Origin: Gammaproteobacteria bacterium
GTDB lineage: Bacteria; Pseudomonadota; Gammaproteobacteria; GCA-001735895
NCBI GenBank assembly: GCA_050298595.1
Contig: JBNKUM010000046.1
Coordinates: 1-26,532, forward strand
Reading direction: 5' to 3'
DNA: 26,532 nt
Part shown: positions 20,078 through 25,681 of the stretch, piece by piece
Numbering within the stretch: position 1 is the stretch's first letter
Layout of the letters: each line of letters begins with the position of its first letter
Translations under genes and position numbers: made by a program
The notes under the pieces: model-generated
Told to the model about the DNA's origin: nothing
Seen by the model: only the letters and a program-made list of their open reading frames with translations
Database searches by the model: none

Positions 20078-21412
20078 ATGTTAAAAAGATTGTTTATATG
20101 GTGCCTAAATATAGTACCTATATTATTATTTTCTTACGCAGGTTCTGTATATGCAGGTTCAGTCAACAACCAGGTGGCTGAGAATCAATACATAGTCGTA
20201 CTTAAAGACCGTAAGTTTTCTTTAGCAGCATCAACAAACGCTACAGGAGAGACTGTCGCGCAGGTTGCTGAGAGACTAATAAATTCAGCCCAGCAAAATC
20301 AGGTTAATGTCGATATGCAAAAAGGTGTGACCCCATCTTTAAAAAATGCTTCAGTAAATTTGAACAATCTTGGTTTTGTATATGAAAAAGCGATAAAAGG
20401 ATTTTCGGCTACCCTTACATCGGATGCGGCACAGTTTTTGAAAAATAATCCTGAAGTAGATTATGTCGAGCAAGATTATGTGGTCACCGTTGATGCTGTT
20501 CAGGCATCTACTCCTTCCTGGGGGTTGGATCGAATTGACCAACGGGACTTACCCTTGAATCAATCATATCAATACATCACCGACGGTAGTAATGTCCACG
20601 TTTATGTTTTAGATACTGGCGTAAGAGCTACTCACAATGAGTTTGTGGGTAGGGTGGGTAATGGATATGATTTTATTGATAATGACTCTAATCCTGATGA
20701 TTGTTACGGTCATGGTACACATGTAGCTGGAACAGCAAGCGGAGTAGGTGTAGGTGTCGCGAAAAATTCTATTATTCACCCGGTAAGGGTTCTCAATTGC
20801 CAGGGGTCTGGATTGTGGAGTCAAATTATTGCTGGAGTGGATTGGGTGGCTAAAAACCACATTTCTCCTTCTGTTGCGAATATGAGTTTAGGCGGAGATG
20901 CATCCCAGGCGGTTGATACAGCCGTTACTAACGCAATCAATGCAGGGGTCACCTTTGTGGTCTCAGCGGGTAATGATTCTGGGGGTGATGCTTGTAACAA
21001 AAGTCCTGCCCGTGTCCCAAATGCTATTACAGTTGCATCTTCAACTTCATTGGATCAACGCTCTAGCTTTTCAAATATTGGCACATGCGTAGATATCTTT
21101 GCACCAGGGTCTGATATATGGTCGTCCATGCCCCCAAATGCGTATATTAACTCCACTTGTTACGAAAATGATGGAGGTGGTTATGGCTTTTGCAGTGGCA
21201 CTTCAATGGCGTCGCCGCATGTAGCTGGCGCTGTGGCATTGTACTTACAAAGTAATGTATCAGCTTCACCCGCTCAAGTGGCTAGCGCGATTATAGGGGA
21301 TTCTATACCCAATAAGATTGCTGATGCCGGAGCGGGGACACCTAATCGCTTACTATCAACGTTAAATTTTGCATGGTTAATTCTTCCTGTGTTCGGTTTA
21401 AATTTGTTTTAG
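20078..21412 (+). CDS. Secreted S8 subtilase (proteinase K/aqualysin-like) with I9 propeptide and a short C-terminal tail
   Basis: Signal peptide, YIVVLK and GFSA (I9), SWGLDRIDQR, catalytic triad VLDTG / HGTHVAG / GTSMASPHVAG; ends PNRLL-STL-NFAWLILPVFGLNLF. Start taken at ATG 20078. Confidence 0.95.
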   Translation: MLKRLFIWCLNIVPILLFSYAGSVYAGSVNNQVAENQYIVVLKDRKFSLAASTNATGETVAQVAERLINSAQQNQVNVDMQKGVTPSLKNASVNLNNLGFVYEKAIKGFSATLTSDAAQFLKNNPEVDYVEQDYVVTVDAVQASTPSWGLDRIDQRDLPLNQSYQYITDGSNVHVYVLDTGVRATHNEFVGRVGNGYDFIDNDSNPDDCYGHGTHVAGTASGVGVGVAKNSIIHPVRVLNCQGSGLWSQIIAGVDWVAKNHISPSVANMSLGGDASQAVDTAVTNAINAGVTFVVSAGNDSGGDACNKSPARVPNAITVASSTSLDQRSSFSNIGTCVDIFAPGSDIWSSMPPNAYINSTCYENDGGGYGFCSGTSMASPHVAGAVALYLQSNVSASPAQVASAIIGDSIPNKIADAGAGTPNRLLSTLNFAWLILPVFGLNLF

Positions 21413-21443
21413 TGTCAGTCATTATTTGTAAGTAACTTGTGAC

Positions 21444-21581
21444 AAATAATCAGGGTCAGGTATGTATTGAATCAGCCATATGATTTTCAGTCTGACTCTA
21501 AATATATTACTTTGTTAAAAGAGACGGTAATCGAGAAGCAAATTTTTAGTGGTGAAAAATTATTATTATCTTGAGTTTTGA
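21444..21581 (+). repeat. Downstream ('T') block, copy 1, with conserved hairpin
   Basis: Aligns with 25818-25955. AGGGTCAG...CTGACTCT outer stem and AATCA/TGATT inner stem; shared GGTAATCGAGAAGCA and TGAAAAATTATTATTATCTTGAGTT. Confidence 0.88.
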
Positions 21582-21984
21582 CAGGAGTGCTCTAAACAGT
21601 ATTGCTCTAGATTGAACGCTTATTGGTTGATGTAAAATCATGTGCGCTTTCTAGTAATAAAGGAGAAAAAGTTTCGATTTTCAAAAACTTCCAAAGATGA
21701 TTCTTGTATCGTGAGTAGATTAAGCAGAATCTTTGTATCGAGACTTTTCATTCAATAAGGAAAAGAAGCTAATTACAGTCATTCTGTTGAGGATGAAGGA
21801 TATTAACGAGAGATCGAAAGTAAATATAGTGCCAGGACGTGAAAGGTGACAAGATGAAGACCGGAGAAGGCCGAGACCGATGTGGATAATAATCGATCTC
21901 GCGTACTTTTTACTGAGCCCCCTTTATGGATTGTAGCGACCCCCTGGAGTTGCTTTGATATAGTGTGATGAAAAAGAGATATTT

Positions 21985-23350: not shown

Positions 23351-23351
23351 T

Positions 23352-23955
23352 GATAAACCCCCAGTTAAACTGGGATGACTCGCATAGGTTCGACCGAGAC
23401 GACGATCATAGTAACGTCTTTGCTCGACTAAAAGTAAAGAGGAAACAATCTATGCGAGACTATAAGAGCTTATCTCATACCCGTTTGGATTGTAAATACT
23501 ATGTTTTGTTTATCCCAAAGAAAAGGCAAAAATTGATATTTGGATCGATACGTAAACATCTGGGAGAGATATTTCATGAACTATCAAAACGTAAAGGGGT
23601 GGTGATTGAGGAAGGCCATTTAATGGAAGATCATGTCCATATGTGTATAAGTTTTCCACCCAAATACGCGCTATCAAACGTAGTTGGTTGCCTGAAAGGT
23701 AAGCGTGCCATATCAATAGCAAAGAAATTTCTAGGTAGACAGTGAAATTTTAATGGGGAGCATTTCTGGGCACGCGGTTTTTCGTTTCCACAGTAGGTCT
23801 GGATGAAGAAATGGTGCTTGAGTATATTAGGAATCAGGAAAAAGAGGATGAACATTGGGATCAGTTACAGATTGGAATATGGGGAACCTTAGTACTTACT
23901 TAAACCCTTTGAGGGCGTAACCCAATAAACCTCCGGCTCTACCGGGGGGGTATCT
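23352..23955 (+). mobile_element. IS200/IS605-family element (tnpA only), defective
   Basis: Subterminal hairpins TAAACCCCCAGTTAAACTGGGA (left) and TAAACCTCCGGCTCTACCGGGGG (right) flank tnpA. Homology with the duplicated P block stops before the element and resumes after it. Ends are approximate. Confidence 0.85.
23452..23903 (+). pseudogene. tnpA: IS200-type HUH/Y1 transposase pseudogene
   Basis: MRDYKSLSHT..CKY...IPK.R, DHVH (HUH), PPKY, LKGK; in-frame TGA at 23743; then FWARG; frameshift; STVGLDEE...YIRNQE. Confidence 0.9.
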
Positions 23956-24079
23956 AATTTATTAAGTATATTAATCAGTTAAAGAATAGTTAATGAATGG
24001 AATCGCAACTTCCTGCAGATTGTTAAACAAGATTTTATGTTAACTGAGCTATAAAAATATACAAATTTTTGGAGAAAAT

Positions 24080-25681
24080 ATGAAATTATCAATAATACCT
24101 GTCGTTATTTTATGCTTAAGCGTAAATACAATTAATGCGGCAGATAAACGGTCAGTCAGGGATATACATGATGCTGCTTCATCAATGTCTCTAAAGGGTT
24201 TTTCAGTAGCGGATGACAAGCTGGAATCCTTGCTAGGATTGTCTCCCGGGGAAGAAAAGCTTTTATCGAGAAAGCAGTATGCTGATCCTGATGGAAATAT
24301 AACCACTCGCTATACTCAAATGTATAAAGGAGTTCCTGTTATCGGAGACGATATTATTATAAACCGCCGTAGTAGTGGAGATATAGAACGAGCCCATGGC
24401 TTTGTTGTGAATGGTATTAAGCAGGATCTGGTAAATGTAACCCCTACACTATCAAGTAGTCAGGTTATGCAGCTTGCAAAAAAACAGAGTGCGGTTAATG
24501 AAGTAAGTATATTGCCAAATAACACTTTGGAATATGAGAATGAGAGTTCCAGGTTGGGTGTTTGGATGAAAGAAAATGGTAAGGCAACCCTGGTTTATGA
24601 GGTAAGTTTTATGCAGTATGGAGAAATGCCTAGCAGGCCATATTACCTTATAGATGCCAACACTGGTGAAATATTAAAATATTTCGATAATATTCAGCAT
24701 TCGAATGCTACCGGTCCAGGTGGTAACTCAAAAACAGGGTTGTATAACTATGGTTCAGATTATGGTTATTTGAATGTCACACAGTCTGGTAGCACGTGTA
24801 CTATGAACAATAGTAATGTTAAAACTGTAAATTTGAATCATGGAACTACTGGTAGCACTGCTTACTCTTTTACATGTCCAGAGAATACTTTTAAGCAAAT
24901 CAATGGGGCATACTCACCGTTAAACGACGCTCACTTCTTTGGAGGTGTGGTTTATGATATGTACAACGATTGGTTAAATACCAGTCCTTTAACATTTCAG
25001 TTACAGATGCGTGTTCATTATGGAAATAATTATGAAAACGCATTTTGGAATGGTAGCTCAATGTCCTTCGGTGATGGACTAAATAAATTTTATCCCTTAG
25101 TTAGTCTTGATATTACAGCCCATGAAGTTAGCCACGGTTTTACTGAACAAAACTCTGGCCTTGTTTACAGTGGAAAATCGGGCGGATTAAACGAGGCATT
25201 TTCAGATATGGCTGGTGAGGCAGCCGAGTATTACATGACAGGGACAAATGATTGGATGGTTGGTGCGCAAATATTTAAAAGCAGCGGTGCCTTGCGTTAC
25301 ATGAATAATCCCACAATGGATGGTCGATCAATTGCGCACCAATCAGATTATTATGATGGATTGGATGTTCATTATAGTTCAGGTGTTTACAATAAGGCAT
25401 TTTATAACTTGGCAACAAGCTCTGGCTGGAATACCAGGAAGGCTTTTGAAGTTTATGCTCGAGCGAATATGTTGTATTGGTCTGCGTCAACTGATTGGGA
25501 TGCTGCGGGTAATGGAGTGATGGATGCCGCTTGTGATCTTGGCTATGACACAAATTCTGTAAAAGCATCTTTGGCAGATGTCGGAGTGACTTCATCACTT
25601 ACTCCTGGATCGATTTGTAAGCAGCCAGTACCTCAAAATTTAGCATGGCTTATACCTGTCTTGAACTTAAATTTGTTTTAG
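24080..25681 (+). CDS. Secreted M4 zinc metalloprotease (vibriolysin/LasB-like; FTP and PepSY propeptide) with a short C-terminal tail
   Basis: GGAG RBS, signal peptide, RY.Q.YKGVPV (FTP), IDANTGEIL (PepSY), [39 protein letters not shown]; ends [14 protein letters not shown]. Confidence 0.96.

Follow-up and report, generated by a model that had tools for sequence, protein, structure and literature searches.

The window analyzed here is the whole 26,532-nucleotide stretch of contig JBNKUM010000046.1 (positions 1 to 26,532, forward strand) from the Gammaproteobacteria bacterium assembly GCA_050298595.1. It encodes two secreted proteases (the A genes), two small secreted proteins (B1 and B2), and a further gene, X, set among repeated blocks and mobile elements. 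The features are as follows.

18601..19023, +, apparent empty cassette slot before B1 (repeat families D4, D7, D8, D10, and D12; alignment)
19042..19419, +, B1, a secreted protein of 125 aa that has four conserved Cys and, by prediction, an AB5 B-subunit-like OB fold
19637..19931, +, conserved B-to-next-A intergenic block, copy 1 (D5, D6, D11, and D14; 84-92% identity to copy 2)
20066..21412, +, secreted proteinase-K/aqualysin-like S8 protease (signal peptide, I9 propeptide, S8 domain to near residue 433, tail)
21365..21412, +, C-terminal tail of the S8 protease, NFAWLILPVFGLNLF plus stop (reads N F A W L I L P V F G L N L F stop, in frame)
21440..21590, +, conserved block of ~150 nt downstream of the A gene, copy 1 (D3 and D7; about 84-93% identity to copy 2)
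21985..22590, +, gene X, 201 aa, N-terminal hydrophobic anchor and acidic remainder, no family
22624..22998, +, B2, 124 aa, 87% identical to its paralogue B1 and located 34 nt past gene X
23054..23331, +, second copy of the conserved A-gene upstream block (an IS200-type insertion follows)
23350..23745, +, IS200/IS605-type Y1 transposase ORF (profile positions 1-90 of 126), an insertion that separates B2 from the M4 gene
24080..25681, +, secreted M4 (thermolysin/pseudolysin-like) metalloprotease (signal peptide, FTP and PepSY propeptide, M4, M4_C, HEVSH motif, tail)
25637..25681, +, C-terminal tail of the M4 protease, 14 residues plus stop, in frame
25814..25965, +, conserved 3′ block, copy 2
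26012..26233, +, group II intron, 5′ part, immediately 3′ of the M4 cassette (match to RF02005, 176 bits; also repeated on other contigs)

The two proteases are unrelated, as an earlier note on this DNA had held: one carries Inhibitor_I9 and Peptidase_S8, the other FTP, PepSY, Peptidase_M4, and M4_C. The public S8 protein starts at the ATG at 20078 and is 444 aa long; its best match among solved structures is 8c4z_B (E value, 1.4e-91; query residues 144-432). The M4 protein matches 7ecc_A (E value, 1.8e-163) and also Mcp02 and pro-elastase. Signal-like hydrophobic N termini were read directly from the sequences of S8, M4, B1, B2, and the small neighbors described below, which points to Sec export of both subunits. 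No A1-A2 nick loop with a disulfide is evident; neither the tail nor the S8 linker contains Cys, and the last Cys of M4 falls inside the stretch aligned to solved M4 chains (query residues 208-519).

Both proteases end in the common C-terminal peptide that the earlier note described, directly on the catalytic domain and without a poly-Pro or TSP3 linker. Compared codon by codon, the two tails share nine identical codons including the stop and differ by three synonymous changes (TTA/CTT, ATT/ATA, and GTG/GTC), three nonsynonymous changes (F/L, F/L, and G/N), and one codon indel. The synonymous changes had been read as a sign of selection on the peptide, a weak argument: since the two classes of change are equal in number, this pair alone gives no evidence of purifying selection. 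Selection on the peptide is suggested because the same 11 residues persist with different codons in other lineages and because W437, P441, and L447 are invariant in 15 S8 orthologues, in which the preceding linker varies. The residues are uniformly hydrophobic with a single conserved Asn/Asp, at odds with the amphipathic helix that had been proposed; the remark about P or PPC domains at the corresponding site of homologues proved correct (PF01483 and PF04151 in many of the matches listed). The home genome (5.49 Mb, 119 contigs, and 23,657 stop-to-stop ORFs of at least 60 aa) was scanned, a check that the earlier note had suggested; the pattern used was W[LIVM][LIVM]{1,2}P[VIAL].{2,8}$ on long ORFs. 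Only the S8 and M4 proteases of the window carry the pattern (2/23,657), and the ending LNLF on long ORFs is likewise confined to them.

Beyond the home genome, 29 distinct versions of the tail were gathered, with the consensus W-L-[IV]-P-[VI]-I-N-L-I-L-x-stop, 11 residues after Trp, and an end that is hydrophobic or Q/E/N. The S8 tail is a divergent member with an extra Leu and with F-G replacing I-N. In this family, the tail is mostly preceded by a poly-Pro or TSP3 linker. It is carried, in at least four phyla, by S8, M4, CHAP, lipase-like, RHS, PKD, and cohesin proteins, and an alpha/beta hydrolase is also among the nonprotease carriers. Since seven or more unrelated architectures, catalytic or binding, bear it across several phyla, the portability claimed for the tail is well founded. 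The pattern occurs once or twice per genome in five other genomes, with a reversed-pattern control giving zero. When the C-terminal 40 residues of 10 tail proteins were compared with the curated NCBIfam C-terminal sorting-signal (-CTERM) models, none matched at an E value of ≤10, and the two weak matches obtained were both to unrelated families; full-length scans found no C-terminal sorting model either. The tail is too short and lacks a basic cluster, and the poor fit to PEP-CTERM, GlyGly-CTERM, and LPXTG that had been noted thus stands.

The protease genes lie in repeated surroundings. Both A-gene flanks and the B genes themselves recur at 84-92% identity, whereas the protease bodies are unrelated. 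The distance from the tail to the conserved 3′ block is 28 nt after S8 and about 130 unrelated nt after M4. Upstream of B1, the apparently empty slot consists of a copy of the A-gene upstream region (18601-18733) joined to a copy of the A-gene downstream region (18764-18803), with the final ~85 nt belonging to an X gene (18939-19023) after them. The window is thus apparently a tandem array of A-X-B cassettes in which the enzyme part has been swapped between conserved flanks: the first cassette has an apparently empty slot, another holds the S8, and the one after it the M4. By this gene order, B2 is the probable partner of S8. A sister genome carries M4(tail)-X-B twice on one contig, with gene X kept between A and B (209 and 203 aa); A and B genes are adjacent and co-oriented both there and in the window. 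The Y1 transposase has two further copies in the home genome (87-91% identity). The contig ends in the group II intron repeat, so that X and B genes following M4, if there are any, are out of view.

B1 and B2 match no Pfam or NCBIfam family at an E value of ≤10, including Enterotoxin_b, SLT_beta, and Pertussis_S2S3, and a sequence search of solved chains returned no match for either. The structure of B1 was considered as an AF2 model (pLDDT, 77). With Foldseek, the best match of this model is the LT-IIb B subunit 8guf_B (E value, 5e-4; TM score, 0.62-0.67), and LT-IIc B, pertussis S2/S3, CTB, CfxB, and EcxB are further top matches. An independent all-against-representatives search also placed LT-IIb B first (Z score, 10.1; rmsd, 2.6; 83 aligned residues), then pertussis toxin chain F (9.4), CTB (8.4), LT-B (8.2), and Stx2 B (7.8), with ArtB (7.4) and PltB (7.2) lower. 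For a distant member of the family, encoded on another contig, a model with a pLDDT of 69.5 likewise matched pertussis, LT-IIb, SubB, PltB/PltC, ArtB, and CfxB chains first, more weakly (E values of 3e-3 and above). In these searches, every known family of AB5 B subunits is represented at the head of the lists, and the small proteins are accordingly predicted to have the enterotoxin-type OB fold of strands, one long helix, and strands. OB folds are common, and Z scores of 8 to 10 are only moderately above the background quoted for the tool. Language-model look-alikes of B1, which serve as leads only, include one cluster labeled "subtilase cytotoxin subunit B" (0.88) and one of Shiga B (0.82). 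The B-like family comprises about 590 clusters at 50% identity and is present in 3 of 400 genomes in a sample of the class, the home genome being one of the 3; in the home genome, B genes and tails are both restricted to one locus.

A DNA scan for the tail, with one genome per species, gave 32 stretches; an in-frame ORF ends at 13 of the scanned loci, corresponding to 13 genes on 11 contigs. On 9 of the 10 assessable genome contigs, a small signal-peptide protein (108-139 aa) adjoins the tail gene, the two being co-oriented. These small neighbors align with one another, and their profile matches that of the window B family with an hhalign probability of 98.1% (E value, 8e-14). Individually, single-sequence HMM matches had E values of 2.8e-5 to 2.3 in round 1, and 4 of 10 neighbors were recognized only weakly, with values of 0.03-0.28 in round 2. 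Two unrelated small neighbors used as controls gave no HMM match. Adjacency of tail and B genes by chance is unlikely because the B family is so rare (3/400 genomes). Tails and B genes at one locus in the home genome, with one or two tails per genome in the five others, fit a private partner and not a sorting regulon.

The association has gaps on both sides. A lipase-type carrier (locus L024) has no B-like neighbor, and its genome, for which completeness is not given, matches neither B profile nor DUF5992. At 32 metagenome loci, which include 8 lipase-type and 3 S8-type tail genes, no B-profile match was obtained at an E value of ≤10, many of the contigs being short and the profile insensitive. 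No B-like gene adjoins two S8 carriers on metagenome contigs; of the metagenome loci, L053 (S8; flanks of 2.2 kb upstream and 1 kb downstream) and three lipase-type loci (L064, L075, and L077) are flanked by enough sequence to establish the absence of an adjacent B-like gene. Orphan B-like genes also exist, with no tail neighbor within 1.5 kb (L084 to L087), and the B gene of genome G121 adjoins a TSP3 protein whose end is no clear tail. The A2-like docking suggested by the earlier note is thus upheld in part: both proteases sit in cassettes with proteins of predicted AB5-B-like fold and homologous small genes flank tails elsewhere, but some carriers lack a B-like partner.

We propose that the tail is a portable hydrophobic docking peptide of ~11 residues (W-L-[IV]-P-[VI]-I-N-L-I-L-x-COOH), carried on a flexible poly-Pro/TSP3 linker or straight on the catalytic domain, that would fasten a Sec-exported enzyme to an oligomer of the neighboring OB-fold B-like protein. 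The B-like protein would form a ring whose pore the tail enters and plugs, as the A2 helix plugs the B pentamer in AB5 toxins, and the ring may bring the enzyme to a glycan-bearing target surface. That an A2-like tail plug docks interchangeable enzymes onto a B-type ring, forming a new AB5-like family, has in our judgment an even chance of being right, on the basis of tail position, conservation, and gene neighborhood. More tentatively, and at rather less than even likelihood, this would be an undescribed cross-phylum delivery system in which an 11-residue hydrophobic plug suffices to load almost any secreted enzyme onto the ring of a new B family, with enzyme genes exchanged as cassettes between conserved flanks. 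The AB5 design would then serve microbes in general for directing hydrolases to glycan-coated targets and would no longer be a rarity of enteric pathogens. The cargoes of such a system would include proteases of the S8 and M4 types, peptidoglycan hydrolases of the CHAP type, lipases, an RHS toxin, and proteins with cohesin or PKD domains, and the Bdellovibrionales and Patescibacteria among the carriers hint at other microbes as targets.

A different reading, which we consider somewhat unlikely, is that the tail works independently of B, as a hydrophobic anchor to the outer membrane, LPS, or vesicles or as an undescribed sorting signal for another machine, with B-like lectin genes as mere frequent companions in islands of secreted enzymes. 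The peptide is hydrophobic throughout, the lipase-type and two S8 carriers lack a B-like neighbor, and one carrier genome lacks any B-like gene, all of which suit an anchor; TSP3/Pro linkers ahead of a C-terminal signal also resemble surface-display architectures. Read from sequence, however, 11 residues are too few to cross a bilayer and no basic stop-transfer cluster follows, and curated sorting-signal models recognize none of the 10 tails. Sortase-type systems usually serve many substrates, in contrast to the one or two carriers per genome seen here, and the tail loci contain no conserved processing enzyme or cognate sortase-like gene. Such a reading would also have to account for 9 of 10 contigs adjoining a gene family found in <1% of sampled genomes, which is hard to do by chance. 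Were it true, the tail would be an undescribed short anchor or sorting signal and new as well.

It is improbable that the tail is instead a partnerless C-terminal prosegment for export or folding, cleaved on maturation like the C-terminal prosequences and PPC domains of S8 and M4 proteases. The tail does start right after the end of the catalytic domain, where homologues have removable P or PPC domains, but it is also found on CHAP, RHS, cohesin, PKD, and alpha/beta hydrolase proteins, which lack such maturation, it is conserved across phyla more than the linker is, and the B-like neighbor would be left unexplained. The likeness of the two tails as a functionless relic of local duplication or recombination of cassette flanks retains only a very slight probability. 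The flanks of the S8 and M4 genes are indeed repeated in DNA and the tail pair has equal nonsynonymous and synonymous differences, but the tail DNA is separated from the repeated 3′ block after M4 by the unrelated stretch described above, and the same peptide occurs with other codons in distant phyla; this spread largely refutes the relic reading.

If enzymes do dock onto B-like rings by this tail, the locus gives a view of a large pool of AB5-like systems in the environment. Their B family would be undetectable by sequence search with known toxins, their A-to-B connector would be minimal and transferable, and their A subunits would be new to such platforms (M4 proteases, CHAP amidases, lipases, and RHS proteins). 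The origin of AB5 toxins by A-subunit replacement would become testable because an array whose shared flanks enclose an S8 in one place, an M4 in another, and no enzyme in a third resembles ongoing replacement. As a part for protein engineering, an 11-residue tag for loading cargo on a multivalent lectin ring would be of use too.

Among known systems, the tail resembles PEP-CTERM, GlyGly-CTERM, LPXTG, and other -CTERM signals in being a short conserved C-terminal motif on diverse secreted proteins, often after a low-complexity linker, and differs from them in having no membrane-spanning stretch, no basic end, and one or two carriers per genome. With no model match, no helix followed by a basic cluster, and two carriers in the home genome, it was rejected as a curated -CTERM signal. 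On the B side, DUF5992 (PF19454) is the sole curated family that touches the B-like superfamily (7/68 and 2/10 members at an E value of ≤0.1; best, 5.7e-6), and an Atlas cluster with 11% DUF5992 scored 0.90 among the language-model look-alikes of B1. B1 and B2 themselves do not match DUF5992 (gathering score, 23.8 bits), a minority of their relatives matching weakly; this family has no known function, and a literature search found no paper naming it. The B pentamers of LT-IIb and LT-IIc are the closest structural matches of the B1 model, at only 15-17% identity and with a disulfide pattern that differs from that suggested by the four conserved Cys of the window proteins.

According to the account of AB5 toxins in PMC11610972, the C-terminal A helix inserts in all of them into the B pore, the apical half of which is hydrophobic, and Table 1 there gives six recognized families, all found in vertebrate pathogens. 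Classical A2 helices are far longer and less hydrophobic than the window tail. Like EcxAB and CfxAB, the window combines a metalloprotease with a B-type OB-fold protein, and EcxB (4l6t_B) and CfxB (2wv6) are among the fold matches. It differs in that its A protein is an M4 thermolysin-type enzyme with a full propeptide, compared with the metzincin family listed in Table 1 of PMC11610972, and in that the B proteins have no sequence relation. Membership in EcxAB/CfxAB was rejected, the A protein being Peptidase_M4 plus M4_C and the B protein having no Enterotoxin_b match. SubAB membership was likewise rejected: the window S8 is not of the SubA type and its B-like protein belongs to no pertussis family. 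Unlike SubAB, the window has a proteinase-K/aqualysin-type S8 with an I9 propeptide (SubA is absent from the best 60 of 140 solved matches), a B-like protein that matches neither Pertussis_S2S3 nor another Pfam B family, 11 hydrophobic residues in place of a long A2 helix, and an extra gene, X, between A and B. Yet both SubAB, with its S8 A subunit and pertussis-family B pentamer, and the window encode a secreted S8 protease beside a small OB-fold protein (a predicted fold in the window), and both attach, as proposed for the window, via the extreme C terminus of A. As far as PMC11610972 describes them, AB5 A subunits have been replaced repeatedly, by a subtilase in SubAB and a metzincin in EcxAB/CfxAB, and SubAB sets a precedent for the capture of an enzyme by a B platform.

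Two proteases encoded in the window end in the same short hydrophobic peptide, here called the tail. The S8 protease ends N-F-A-W-L-I-L-P-V-F-G-L-N-L-F-stop at 21365-21412, and the tail of the M4 protease lies at 25637-25681. The protein bodies are unrelated, with Inhibitor_I9 and Peptidase_S8 domains in the first and FTP, PepSY, Peptidase_M4 and M4_C domains in the second, and the common ending described in the earlier note was confirmed. Matches to solved structures assigned the S8 protease to the proteinase-K/aqualysin kind, with the catalytic domain ending near residue 433 of 448, and placed the M4 protease nearest Mcp02 and pseudolysin, with the domain ending near residue 514-519 of 533. 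Because both catalytic domains finish shortly before the C terminus, the tail is an add-on behind complete enzymes. The window's own genome (5.49 Mb, 119 contigs, 45% G+C) has 23,657 ORFs of ≥60 aa, and only these two have such an ending in a long ORF. The tail codons of the pair differ by three synonymous changes, three nonsynonymous changes, and one codon indel, so the earlier argument for selection on the peptide, drawn from synonymous differences, is weak for the S8/M4 pair alone.

Both protease genes belong to a tandem array occupying 18.6-26.0 kb of the window, which also contains two small secreted paralogues (B1 and B2) and a gene designated X. The features of the array and its surroundings are as follows.

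527-612, minus strand: c-di-GMP-I riboswitch aptamer (RF01051, 84.6 bits)
16110-18186: aldehyde:ferredoxin oxidoreductase gene (AFOR_N and AFOR_C), then an overlapping ThiS-like small protein, just 5′ of the array
18601-19023: apparent slot without an enzyme gene, in which the block otherwise upstream of an enzyme gene is joined directly to the block otherwise downstream of one; the final ~85 nt of an X gene and then B1 come next
19042-19419: B1, secreted paralogue of B2 (125 aa, against 124 aa for B2; 87% identical)
20066-21412: S8 protease gene
21440-21590 and 25814-25965, also 18764-18803: conserved noncoding block of ~150 nt 3′ of the proteases (about 84-93% identity)
21985-22590: gene X, between the S8 gene and B2 and 34 nt before B2 (201 aa, N-terminal hydrophobic anchor, acidic remainder, no family)
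22624-22998: B2, secreted paralogue of B1
23350-23745: IS200/IS605-type Y1 transposase ORF separating B2 from the M4 gene; it covers profile positions 1-90 of 126 and is apparently truncated
24080-25681: M4 protease gene
26012-26233: 5′ part of a group II intron (RF02005, 176 bits), directly after the M4 cassette, with the contig ending inside it

The B genes, a block of ~300 nt from B to the next protease gene, and the ~150-nt block 3′ of each protease are repeated at 84-92% identity and flank unrelated protease bodies. The ~150-nt block has no Rfam match and no terminator-like site, and a promoter/terminator scan of the cassette region was at background (29 found versus 27.7 expected and 6 versus 4.9). 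The apparently empty slot at 18601-19023 suggests gain or loss of enzyme genes while the flanks stay in place. A 24-kb contig of the sister genome, from the same genus, has the order B, M4 (tail), X, B, S8 without tail, M4 (tail), X, B, from which the cassette unit is read as A(tail)-X-B, where A is the tail-bearing enzyme gene. The sister-genome slot after one B gene holds a tail-less S8 + DUF5648 protein (L007:9235-10854). In this genus, gene X invariably separates A from B (the sister-genome copies encode 209 and 203 aa), and it is absent at the other loci examined; a language-model protein atlas returned nothing usable for it (recognition 1263, best 0.77), and its product could be an assembly factor or tether. 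The transposase ORF has two further copies in the genome, 87-91% identical. The contig stops at the group II intron because its final ~570 nt are repeated on other contigs of the genome, and genes after M4 are therefore out of view.

The tail is found well beyond this locus. A proline-rich linker followed by x-L-[AG]-W-L-[IV]-P-V-I-N-L-I-L-[FLN] ends 17 of the best 120 relatives of the S8 C-terminal half, and an alignment of 15 tailed S8 relatives shows W437, P441, and L447 to be invariant and the linker variable. A back-translated DNA pattern of the tail was used to scan one genome per species and metagenome contigs. The genome scan gave at least 32 stretches, of which 13 loci (13 genes on 11 contigs) are in-frame ORF ends and the other 19 are not; 12 of the at least 32 metagenome stretches are genuine ORF ends. 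At least 29 distinct tails were gathered. The pattern occurs one to two times per genome, and a reversed-pattern control gave 0. Carriers include several kinds of S8 protease and M4, CHAP + CARDB proteins in one Bdellovibrionales and one Moranbacteria metagenome-assembled genome (MAG), a PGAP1-like alpha/beta hydrolase (lipase-type, a label checked with Pfam for L024 and L064 only and otherwise assigned by near-identical ends), an RHS + TSP3 protein of 1,231 aa in a Nitrospirota MAG, a PKD protein, and a 585-aa protein of no family; variant tails end a cohesin + TSP3 protein and an S8 + TSP3 protein. The linker preceding the tail consists of poly-Pro or bacterial thrombospondin type 3 (TSP3) repeats. 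TSP3 repeats, which form the linker in several carriers elsewhere, also occur in an OmpA-family protein encoded in the window (2378-3307).

This spread over S8, M4, CHAP, lipase-type, RHS, PKD, and cohesin proteins bears out the earlier proposal of a portable tag. Comparison with the NCBIfam C-terminal sorting-signal models bears out its separation from known signals: none matched any of ten tails at E ≤ 10, nor either of the two full-length window proteases. A word-based protein search with the 40-residue tail region returned nothing beyond the query itself, and the motif strings led to no relevant paper in the literature searched, which lay mostly outside subscription journals. Two other roles were dropped. 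A type I secretion signal was set aside since the carriers have N-terminal signal peptides, and an outer-membrane beta-signal since the alternating pattern is absent and the last residue varies.

B1 and B2 match no family in Pfam or NCBIfam and no solved structure by sequence. Seven relatives were found by word-based search, and exhaustive search with a B profile yielded 587 representatives at E ≤ 1e-3, of which 205 reached E ≤ 1e-10, mostly of about 105-130 aa among the 150 listed. C116 is invariant in the family, and C46, C63, C73, and R120 are nearly so. The AlphaFold2 model of B1 (pLDDT 77, pTM 0.67) consists of strands, one long helix, and strands. Foldseek against the PDB ranked B subunits of AB5 toxins at the top, with LT-IIb B first (E 5e-4, TM up to 0.67), followed by LT-IIc B, pertussis S2/S3, cholera toxin B, CfxB, and EcxB. 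An independent structure search also placed LT-IIb B first (Z 10.1, rmsd 2.6, 83 residues), ahead of pertussis toxin chain F (Z 9.4), CipA (9.3), and the protein-glutaminase pro-region (8.6). Lower ranks were CTB (Z 8.4), LT-B (8.2), SilF (8.1), Stx2 B (7.8), ArtB (7.4), and PltB (7.2); in this search, models that lack any true match often reach a best Z of 7-8. Modeling of L014a, a small tail-gene neighbor that scores weakly against the B profile (pLDDT 69.5), again brought AB5 B chains to the top, with pertussis toxin chains at E 3e-3, followed by LT-IIb B, SubB 4bwg_H, PltB/PltC, ArtB, and CfxB. The atlas placed hypothetical clusters near B, along with a cluster that is 11% DUF5992 (0.90), one named "subtilase cytotoxin subunit B" (0.88), and one of Shiga B (0.82). 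The DUF5992 profile weakly matches 7/68 and 2/10 B-family members and gave one subthreshold match in five genomes; DUF5992/PF19454 is named nowhere in the literature searched. As judged from these models, the evidence for an AB5 B-subunit-like fold in B1 is good, not overwhelming.

The tail and B-like genes occur together at many loci. A signal-peptide protein of 108-139 aa directly adjoins the tail gene on 9 of the 10 assessable genome contigs (L025, cut on the relevant side, is outside the 10), lying downstream at L014 (two, after two tail genes), L017, L019, L023 (two), L030, L038, and in the sister genome, and upstream at L027 and L035. Ten of these neighbors align with the common pattern "...A..L.A..SGKK[VI]...C", and their profile matches the window's B family with an hhalign probability of 98.1% (E 8e-14). 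Individual comparison of these neighbors with a profile of 141 sequences (Z set to 1000) gave E values of 2.8e-5 (L023a) and 6.8e-5 (L019), 0.008-0.025 (L014b, L030, L038, and L023b), and 0.2-2.3 (L014a, L027, L017, and L035), which a second profile round improved; two unrelated small neighbors used as controls did not match the B profile. The B family is rare, present in 3 of 400 sampled genomes of the class (the window's own included) and 2 of 61 relatives, and in the window's genome tail and B are both confined to the cassette locus. Two genomes were found through B alone: in G148, B is adjoined by a cohesin + TSP3 protein ending ...LIPALITIINSILLD, and in G121, by a TSP3 protein that lacks a clear tail at its end. 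At L017, a second S8 protease with a variant tail, ...YDYLPVIISYILS, follows just after the B-like gene (3977-5362, minus strand), and two tailed enzymes may therefore share a single B-like gene at this locus. A role for the B-like protein as a protease inhibitor was dropped, because CHAP, RHS, cohesin, and PKD proteins have this companion too.

The main rival reading, that the tail is an undescribed anchor or sorting signal independent of B, has this co-occurrence against it and draws on loci where the two are apart. B-like neighbors are absent from the lipase-type carriers (8 of the 12 metagenome tails and L024); in the genome holding L024, of unreported completeness, neither of the B profiles nor DUF5992 found a match. 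None adjoins the tail genes at L053 (S8), L064, L075, and L077 (lipase-type), where the flanks are long enough. At L064, an S8 + TSP3 protein ending ...RIMPWIPLLLD (917-2989) is convergent with the lipase-type tail gene, and no B-like gene lies within 7 kb of the two tailed genes. The B profile at E ≤ 10 also matched nothing in 32 metagenome loci, many of them short, and this profile missed 6 of 10 genome-set neighbors. Orphan B-like genes exist (L084-L087, no tail neighbor within 1.5 kb), as the abstract of PMC9120245 notes for classical B subunits. A complex prediction of four B copies with the last 44 S8 residues and alignments scored 0.01 against a mark of 0.32, a result that speaks neither for nor against binding. 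We consider a B-independent tail possible and rather doubtful.

The preferred reading is an AB5-like arrangement. Signal-peptide-like N termini are present on both proteases and the B-like proteins, so that the two would encounter each other once exported by Sec, in the manner of AB5 subunits. Passages of PMC11610972 state that every AB5 toxin has a C-terminal A helix inserted in the B pentamer pore, that the apical half of this pore is generally hydrophobic, that the A-B interface is "conserved but flexible," and that A subunits have been swapped more than once (subtilase, metzincin); passages of PMC6950094 contain nothing further about the A2 segment. The tail may be a minimal version of such an A2-type plug entering a B pore, made of Trp-Leu-Ile, a possible helix-starting Pro, and a hydrophobic helix of roughly two turns that includes a single conserved Asn/Asp. 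A flexible linker would tether the plug, so that any folded secreted enzyme could hang on the ring, and the array in the window would be three such units with exchanged cargo.

Compared with known systems, the tail differs from tripartite sorting signals on every test of membership. The window B protein fits none of the known B sequence families, and the A1-A2 disulfide loop of AB5 toxins is not evident in the window proteases. The locus falls outside both SubAB and EcxAB, its S8 protease not being SubA-like and its M4 protease not a metzincin; in the proposed reading, it would nonetheless work like them. No prior description of an AB5-like family with this tail was found in the literature searched, mostly outside subscription journals. 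We put at about even the prospect that the locus represents AB5 architecture in which the B family, the minimal connector, and the types of cargo are all new.
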